DNA of 19,380 bases from Escherichia coli (GTDB taxonomy: Bacteria > Pseudomonadota > Gammaproteobacteria > Enterobacterales > Enterobacteriaceae): the NCBI RefSeq assembly GCF_003334355.1, contig NZ_QOWP01000048.1; one strand, 5' to 3'. The translations under genes and the position numbers were made by a program. The notes beneath the pieces are model-generated. The model did not search any database. It was not told where the DNA came from and saw only the letters and a program-made list of their open reading frames with translations. Each line of letters opens with the position of its first letter. Positions within the stretch are counted from its first letter, which is position 1. Below are positions 14,380-14,426 of the stretch, piece by piece.

Positions 14380-14426
14380 CAAAAAAACGAAAACTGGTCA
14401 ACCAAATATCAGTTTGATTGACCAGT
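14380..14426 (-). terminator. Rho-independent terminator of uxuAB (minus strand)
   Basis: On the minus strand, a 14-bp stem (ACTGGTCAACCAAA / TTTGATTGACCAGT, one mismatch) with 6-nt loop is followed by TTTCGTTTTTTTG. Lies 24 nt downstream of the uxuB stop. Confidence 0.65.

Follow-up and report, generated by a model that had tools for sequence, protein, structure and literature searches.

A 47-bp element between uxuB and uxuR of Escherichia coli probably serves as the terminator of uxuAB when read as RNA and as an autoregulatory UxuR/ExuR operator of uxuR when read as DNA, the two functions most likely being independent of each other. The minus-strand RNA of the element would form a Rho-independent terminator, and the 3' arm of the same hairpin, as duplex DNA, would be the operator, about 67 bp upstream of the sigma-70 promoter of uxuR.

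Both the kind of element and its content are already known: UxuR autorepression, the binding consensus, the promoter and the start site have all been published. Only the overlap of operator and terminator looks undescribed, and a limited literature search found no published description of it. Two well-known element types overlap here, and there is no sign of a new mechanism.

Anatomy of the uxuB-uxuR spacer

The window, i.e. the whole 19,380-nt stretch of DNA analysed, carries, in reverse orientation, the gntP / uxuA-uxuB / uxuR locus of E. coli, with uxuA upstream of uxuB. A window position p converts to K-12 as K-12 = 4554361 + (14450 - p). Of 5426 complete E. coli genomes, 5405 contain the uxuB-uxuR spacer, with 95-100% identity, and 4552 carry an identical 63-mer.

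Table 1. Features of the window, in window coordinates
Feature	Position	Strand	Remarks
uxuR coding sequence	13462-14235	-	100% identical to annotated E. coli records
REP element, uxuR 5' untranslated region	14273-14302		Inverted repeat
uxuR transcription start	14332	-	K-12 4554479, SMRT-Cappable-seq (PMC6131387 supplement)
uxuR promoter GTGCCA-17-TATAGT	14340-14368	-	Extended -10 TG at 14347-14348; promoter scan
U-tract UUUUCGUUUUUUU of the predicted terminator	14380-14392	-	Directly after the hairpin
Candidate UxuR/ExuR operator box AAACTGGTCAACCAAATA	14391-14408		Core TGGTCAACCA at 14395-14404; in hairpin 3' arm
Hairpin of the predicted uxuAB intrinsic terminator	14393-14426	-	Stem of 14 bp with one G-U pair; loop of 6 nt
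Near-copy of the box in the 5' arm, TGATTGACCA	14415-14424		Core differs at one position; main box 20 bp away
uxuB coding sequence	14450-15910	-	100% identical to annotated E. coli records; stop codon 14450-14452
UxuR-type box, gntP/uxuA spacer	17338-17355		Core TGGTTAACCA at 17342
UxuR-type box, gntP/uxuA spacer	17444-17461		Core TGGTTGACCA at 17448
gntP	17515-18858	+

The inverted repeat has two 14-nt arms (14393-14406 and 14413-14426) that are 93% complementary on DNA. The minus strand, which is the sense strand for uxuB and uxuR, reads ACUGGUCAAUCAAA-CUGAUA-UUUGGUUGACCAGU and then UUUUCGUUUUUUUG, and the hairpin starts 24 nt past the uxuB stop codon. The sole DNA mismatch in the repeat becomes a G-U pair on the minus strand only. 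The stem is A/U-rich, with G-C in 5 of its 14 pairs. The 81-nt context folds at -20.1 kcal/mol (z = -3.8; 0 of 200 shuffles as good) and the isolated hairpin at -18.8 kcal/mol, with U at 8 of the 10 nt after the stem. No competing (antiterminator) structure appears in the fold of the hairpin context, and none of the Rfam cis-regulatory families reaches threshold.

The original prediction held that this hairpin is the uxuAB terminator and that its stem contains TGGTCAACCA. Both statements agree with what was found: the core lies on the plus strand, in the 3' arm, the anatomy is that of a terminator, and pairing is kept through compensatory and wobble changes in three genera. The hairpin most likely ends the uxuAB transcript as an intrinsic (Rho-independent) terminator, and from these features we infer that it terminates in vivo. 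The 3'-end mapping data sets searched hold no uxuB entry; uxuAB is uninduced under the conditions they cover.

Downstream of the hairpin lies the uxuR promoter. A SELEX study with sigma-70 holoenzyme gives identical hexamers for the uxuB>uxuR spacer (PMC3946193). The TGnTATAGT motif is conserved in Escherichia, Citrobacter, the Klebsiella oxytoca group and Atlantibacter, as TGCTATAGT in most and as TGGTATAGT or TGATATAGT in Escherichia. SMRT-Cappable-seq in M9 recorded a transcript from 4554479 to 4555393, with 106 start-site reads, that covers b4324 only (PMC6131387). Past the terminator, uxuR has a primary start site of its own. The start-site tables of two other studies contain no uxuR entry. 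The mapped start falls on a T 8 nt past the -10 hexamer and has A residues 1-2 nt away on both sides; the real position may differ from it by one or two bases.

Counted from the measured start, the centre of the box lies at about -67.5, and the U-tract, as DNA, at about -48 to -60 of the uxuR promoter. The box overlaps neither the promoter nor the start site, and -67.5 is an unusual position for a repressor site. From the end of the U-tract to the uxuR ATG there are 145 nt on the same strand.

The REP element noted earlier in the uxuR upstream region is real: it is an inverted repeat and partially matches the REP-derived Rfam family naRNA4 (14258-14303), and a 1.6-kb query that includes it matches an E. 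coli genome at 37 places in the median. In other Escherichia lineages (loci L001-L004) the uxuB-uxuR spacer exceeds that of the window and K-12 by about 54 nt, the extra sequence lying beside the REP element, so the REP/BIME content of the uxuR leader varies between lineages.

Conservation of pairing and of sequence in the hairpin

For comparison across genera, 80 uxuR loci were collected, one genome per species. Among them, uxuB lies directly upstream of uxuR only in Escherichia, Citrobacter, the Klebsiella oxytoca group, two Klebsiella-like genomes and Atlantibacter. A matching 14-bp hairpin is found in 18 sequences from the first three of these groups. Pairing is nearly complete, with 99.2% of cells paired vs 17-50% when the partners are slid. 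In two pairs both partners changed: U-A became G-C at the fifth column, and A-U became C-G in K. michiganensis. Five pairs differ in one partner only, with a standard pair kept in nearly all. The G-U pairs are possible on the uxuB sense strand only, which argues for pairing at the RNA level. Hairpin energies range from -16.5 to -21.8 kcal/mol in the sequences folded. The 10 nt past the stem contain 7-8 U in Escherichia and Citrobacter and 4-5 U in the K. oxytoca group.

Besides the pairing, the sequence itself is conserved. Of the 18 sequences, 17 have exactly the same box-bearing 3' arm, TTTGGTTGACC; that of K. michiganensis has one T-to-G change, compensated in the 5' arm. Mean column identity over the 50-nt hairpin region reaches 84%, vs 56% for the two uxuA-uxuB spacer hairpins of these loci, which keep their structure while their sequences cannot be aligned between genera; the invariant columns of that region are mostly ribosome-binding site. 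Changes are more frequent in the 5' arm (7 events) than in the 3' arm (4 events), an excess too small to serve as evidence and partly expected because the G/U-rich 3' arm tolerates transitions in its partner. Within the genus, variation is limited to the loop in 4 of 5 Escherichia-group reference genomes, and in LF82, the single E. coli variant inspected, the loop differs and nothing else. One candidate exception, a loop-proximal ATTTGG that seemed unpaired in Klebsiella, was rejected, as it pairs through G-U and one compensatory change.

The uxuA-uxuB hairpins lie on the minus strand at 15959-15985 and about 15926-15945. They are kept in Escherichia, Citrobacter and Klebsiella with almost wholly replaced stem sequences, and a T-run follows the first of them in its Citrobacter version. 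mRNA processing, stability or partial termination are possibilities for their role. A weak Rfam DnaX match at 15931-15989 is spurious, being intergenic and on the strand opposite to uxuA and uxuB.

The box as a candidate UxuR/ExuR operator

Exact TGGTNNACCA sites (TGGT-N2-ACCA) occur three times in the 19,380 bp vs 0.23 expected, and 1 of 200 shuffles reaches three. The other two copies lie in the gntP/uxuA spacer, and the likeness to sites upstream of gntP that had been pointed out earlier is thus borne out. The description of TGGTCAACCA as a palindrome holds for its outer four bases and fails at the central dinucleotide. The 18-bp sequence AAATTGGTATACCAATTT is a published UxuR site and consensus that has been used in a biosensor (PMC8092373). 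The uxuR box matches it at 13 of 18 positions (5 mismatches), with a perfect core. Together with the two gntP/uxuA boxes (4 and 5 mismatches) it makes up the best three matches in the window, the next having 6. The best candidates at the K-12 promoter regions of uxaC/exuT, exuR, uxaB, uidA and uidR have 4-6 mismatches.

A regulon matrix was built from nine candidate regulon-promoter sites, chosen by the author as the best consensus matches and not footprinted. On this matrix the uxuR box scores 17.3 bits, third in the window and within the 13.2-20.6 bits of the training sites; the next match in the window has 10.5 bits, and shuffled windows reach 11.9 on average with their best match. Neither near the uxuR promoter nor elsewhere in the spacer does the matrix detect another site. 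We take it that a box upstream of uxuR has been predicted by comparative genomics and is listed in RegulonDB. The near-copy in the 5' arm was considered as a second operator and rejected: one-mismatch core matches occur in the window at chance frequency (7 found vs 6.1 expected), and it scores at background level (5.3 bits). It is probably only the complement required by the hairpin.

UxuR and ExuR have been described as autorepressors (PMC9369180; PMC12842492). Full-text literature searches for the box sequence and for mentions of a uxuR promoter or site gave no relevant result. A genomic SELEX paper on UxuR is ambiguous about its sites: according to the text, UxuR alone binds a single site, in the gntP/uxuA spacer, the legend has two sites in the operon, and the table names gntP/uxuABR.

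The box also occurs upstream of uxuR in many other genera. Within 300 bp upstream, a core with at most one mismatch is found in 54 of the 80 species vs 19% of background windows, and a perfect core in 25 of the 80 vs 5%. The central TG has the E. coli orientation in 40 of 69 matches upstream of uxuR. Photorhabdus, Morganella, Providencia, Vibrio, Photobacterium and Cedecea carry the box without an adjacent uxuB and without such a hairpin, the first three with TTTTTGGTTGACCAATTT-type boxes. In Cedecea and Erwinia, the box abuts the -10 element TGCTATAGT. The two Klebsiella-like genomes (L020, L021) have another, G+C-rich hairpin as their terminator; the box follows this hairpin and lies outside it. 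From this distribution, and from a score equal to that of the regulon candidates, the proposal of an operator-like box for UxuR/ExuR gains support, and we infer that the protein binds there. By the same comparison the TGGTTGACCA-type box appears to predate its role as a hairpin arm, because it is present upstream of uxuR in genera that have neither the uxuB neighbour nor the hairpin.

The spacing between box and promoter varies by genus. The box centre lies at about -66.5 in Klebsiella and about -47.5 in Citrobacter. In Citrobacter (loci L006-L016) the box is 20 bp closer to the TATAGT -10 than in Escherichia and the K. oxytoca group; 20 bp is about two turns of the helix, which leaves the facing of the box relative to the promoter roughly unchanged.

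A further arrangement is seen in Photobacterium and Vibrio (loci L074-L080), in which the box lies about 80 bp ahead of uxuR and its TTGACC precedes a TATCAT or TATGAT by 16 nt; judged by these motifs, the operator apparently serves as the uxuR -35 as well. For E. coli, the TTGACC of the box was rejected as a -35 since no -10 lies at 16-18 bp. The spacer of Atlantibacter subterranea contains a G+C-rich terminator and the -10 TGCTATAGT and lacks a recognisable UxuR box, its best match having 8 mismatches; autoregulation of uxuR may be lost in this species.

Competing explanations and related systems

The dual-use reading would run as follows. The operator would be the ancestral part, lying upstream of uxuR across Enterobacterales and Vibrionaceae and usually overlapping the promoter. 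In the lineage of Escherichia, Citrobacter and the K. oxytoca group, where uxuR stands behind uxuB, an added 5' arm and U-tract would have turned the box into a terminator arm. Termination would insulate uxuR from induced uxuAB transcription, and UxuR/ExuR at about -67 would account for the reported autorepression of uxuR, which is modest. A repressor at -67.5 probably acts weakly; one possible mode is that, when bound, it hinders RNA polymerase from contacting the T-rich stretch that separates box and -35.

One explanation, rather unlikely though the likeliest of the alternatives, is that the hairpin ends uxuAB and the operator-like sequence is a relic or accident with no role in the control of uxuR in E. 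coli. The distance of the box fits this, since a centre near -67.5 lies outside the zone that the box occupies at other uxuR promoters and at exuR, and so does the text of the genomic SELEX paper, with gntP/uxuA as the sole UxuR site. The stem itself provides a further argument: in Citrobacter and Klebsiella the half-site ACCA has become ACCC through the U-A to G-C stem change, compensated in the other arm, which degrades the palindrome and implies that RNA pairing outranks it there; moreover, the tolerance of the G/U-rich arm for partner transitions partly explains the 5'-arm changes. Against this, ACCC-type half-sites also occur in the boxes abutting the -10 in Erwinia and Cedecea, so ACCC need not abolish binding and the altered boxes are not necessarily dead. 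The 3' arm is far better conserved in sequence than the neighbouring hairpins of these loci, the box scores as high as the candidate sites at other regulon promoters, and uxuR autorepression is reported while the matrix offers no other candidate in the spacer. The opposite explanation, in which the inverted repeat is a pair of protein sites, there is no working terminator and uxuABR is largely co-transcribed, is very improbable. The low G-C content of the stem (just 5 of 14 pairs) and the short U-tracts of the K. oxytoca group would suit it, but the 8 U in 10 nt after the stem in Escherichia and Citrobacter, the G-U pairs and compensatory changes that indicate pairing of sense-strand RNA, the poor 5'-arm box and the detection of a monocistronic uxuR transcript all speak against it.

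The original prediction went further and suggested that one element gives inducer-dependent termination or read-through control of uxuR. Nothing found supports this part: there is no antiterminator, uxuR has its own start, and the uxuAB promoter is repressed as well when UxuR is on the DNA, so that little transcription would arrive to be modulated. A switch in which UxuR/ExuR on the hairpin DNA acts as a roadblock or alters termination, so that read-through from uxuAB into uxuR depends on inducer, is improbable. Operator and terminator do overlap physically, the two arms amount to two box-like sequences 20 bp apart, and any read-through would add to the expression of the co-directional uxuR, 145 nt past the U-tract. 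Yet no alternative RNA structure rivals the hairpin, the 5'-arm box scores at background, and the primary start of uxuR is its own. In addition, when the repressor is on the DNA the boxes at the uxuA promoter should be occupied too and few polymerases would reach the terminator; when inducer is present, the repressor would leave the uxuA boxes and the uxuR box alike. More generally, it is doubtful that occupancy of the box alters the fate of uxuAB polymerases and that the terminator T-tract doubles as an upstream contact of the uxuR promoter. If such coupling were true, one 47-bp element would set both the insulation and the feedback of a repressor gene, and the 20-bp spacing difference of Citrobacter from Escherichia and Klebsiella would reflect a helical-phasing requirement.

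Compared with known UxuR/ExuR operators of the hexuronate regulon (GntR family, FadR subfamily), e.g. the gntP/uxuA boxes, the uxuR box has the same TGGT-N2-ACCA core, A/T-rich flanks and a like number of mismatches to the consensus (4-5), and it likewise lies upstream of a regulon gene, one whose product is reported to repress itself. It differs in position and context: the known operators lie over a promoter, whereas the uxuR box is at about -67.5, single, without a detectable partner and inside an RNA hairpin. Like the Rho-independent terminators of E. coli, the uxuB hairpin is followed by a U-tract, stands just past a stop codon and has compensatory changes; unlike them, it has an A/U-rich stem whose sequence, beyond the pairing, is conserved across genera, which the neighbouring uxuA-uxuB hairpins do not show.

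The closest comparison is the K-12 exuT-exuR spacer (positions 8540-8630 of locus L085), which has an upstream-gene terminator, a box and a TATAGT -10 in the same order as the uxuB-uxuR spacer. The box of exuR, the paralogous regulator gene, is AAAGTGGTATAACAAATA; it overlaps the -10, which is identical to that of uxuR, and is centred near -20. In contrast to uxuB-uxuR, the modules are unfused, and a G+C-rich hairpin apart from the box serves as the exuT terminator. Hairpin and box are also separate upstream of uidR. Because exuR and uidR keep the two apart, the distal fused arrangement is peculiar to uxuB-uxuR.

Repressors can also act as roadblocks to elongating RNA polymerase, as LacI does at lacO2 and PurR within purB. 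The uxuR box resembles these sites in lying within a transcribed region, the 3' end of the uxuAB transcription unit, but the terminator with which it coincides would in any case stop the polymerase.

On the dual-use reading, one short sequence would carry two codes, RNA pairing and protein recognition, with a trade-off between them that shows in Citrobacter and Klebsiella, where the stem survives at the palindrome's expense. A further suggestion is that a terminator can originate by the addition of a complementary arm to an existing palindromic operator. In E. coli, mutating the uxuR operator or deleting the uxuB terminator would affect both elements, which is relevant to hexuronate biosensors and to studies of uxuR regulation. 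The finding is a small detail, consisting of shared bases and an evolutionary trade-off, and opens no long-standing question.

The region around uxuR also varies among natural strains. When window positions 13400-15000 are followed in other E. coli genomes, some isolates have IS1 or IS3 insertions in or beside uxuR. Strain ST2747 diverges completely from the window just past the uxuR -10, with no uxuR annotated within 100 bp. uxuR may thus have been disrupted repeatedly in natural strains.
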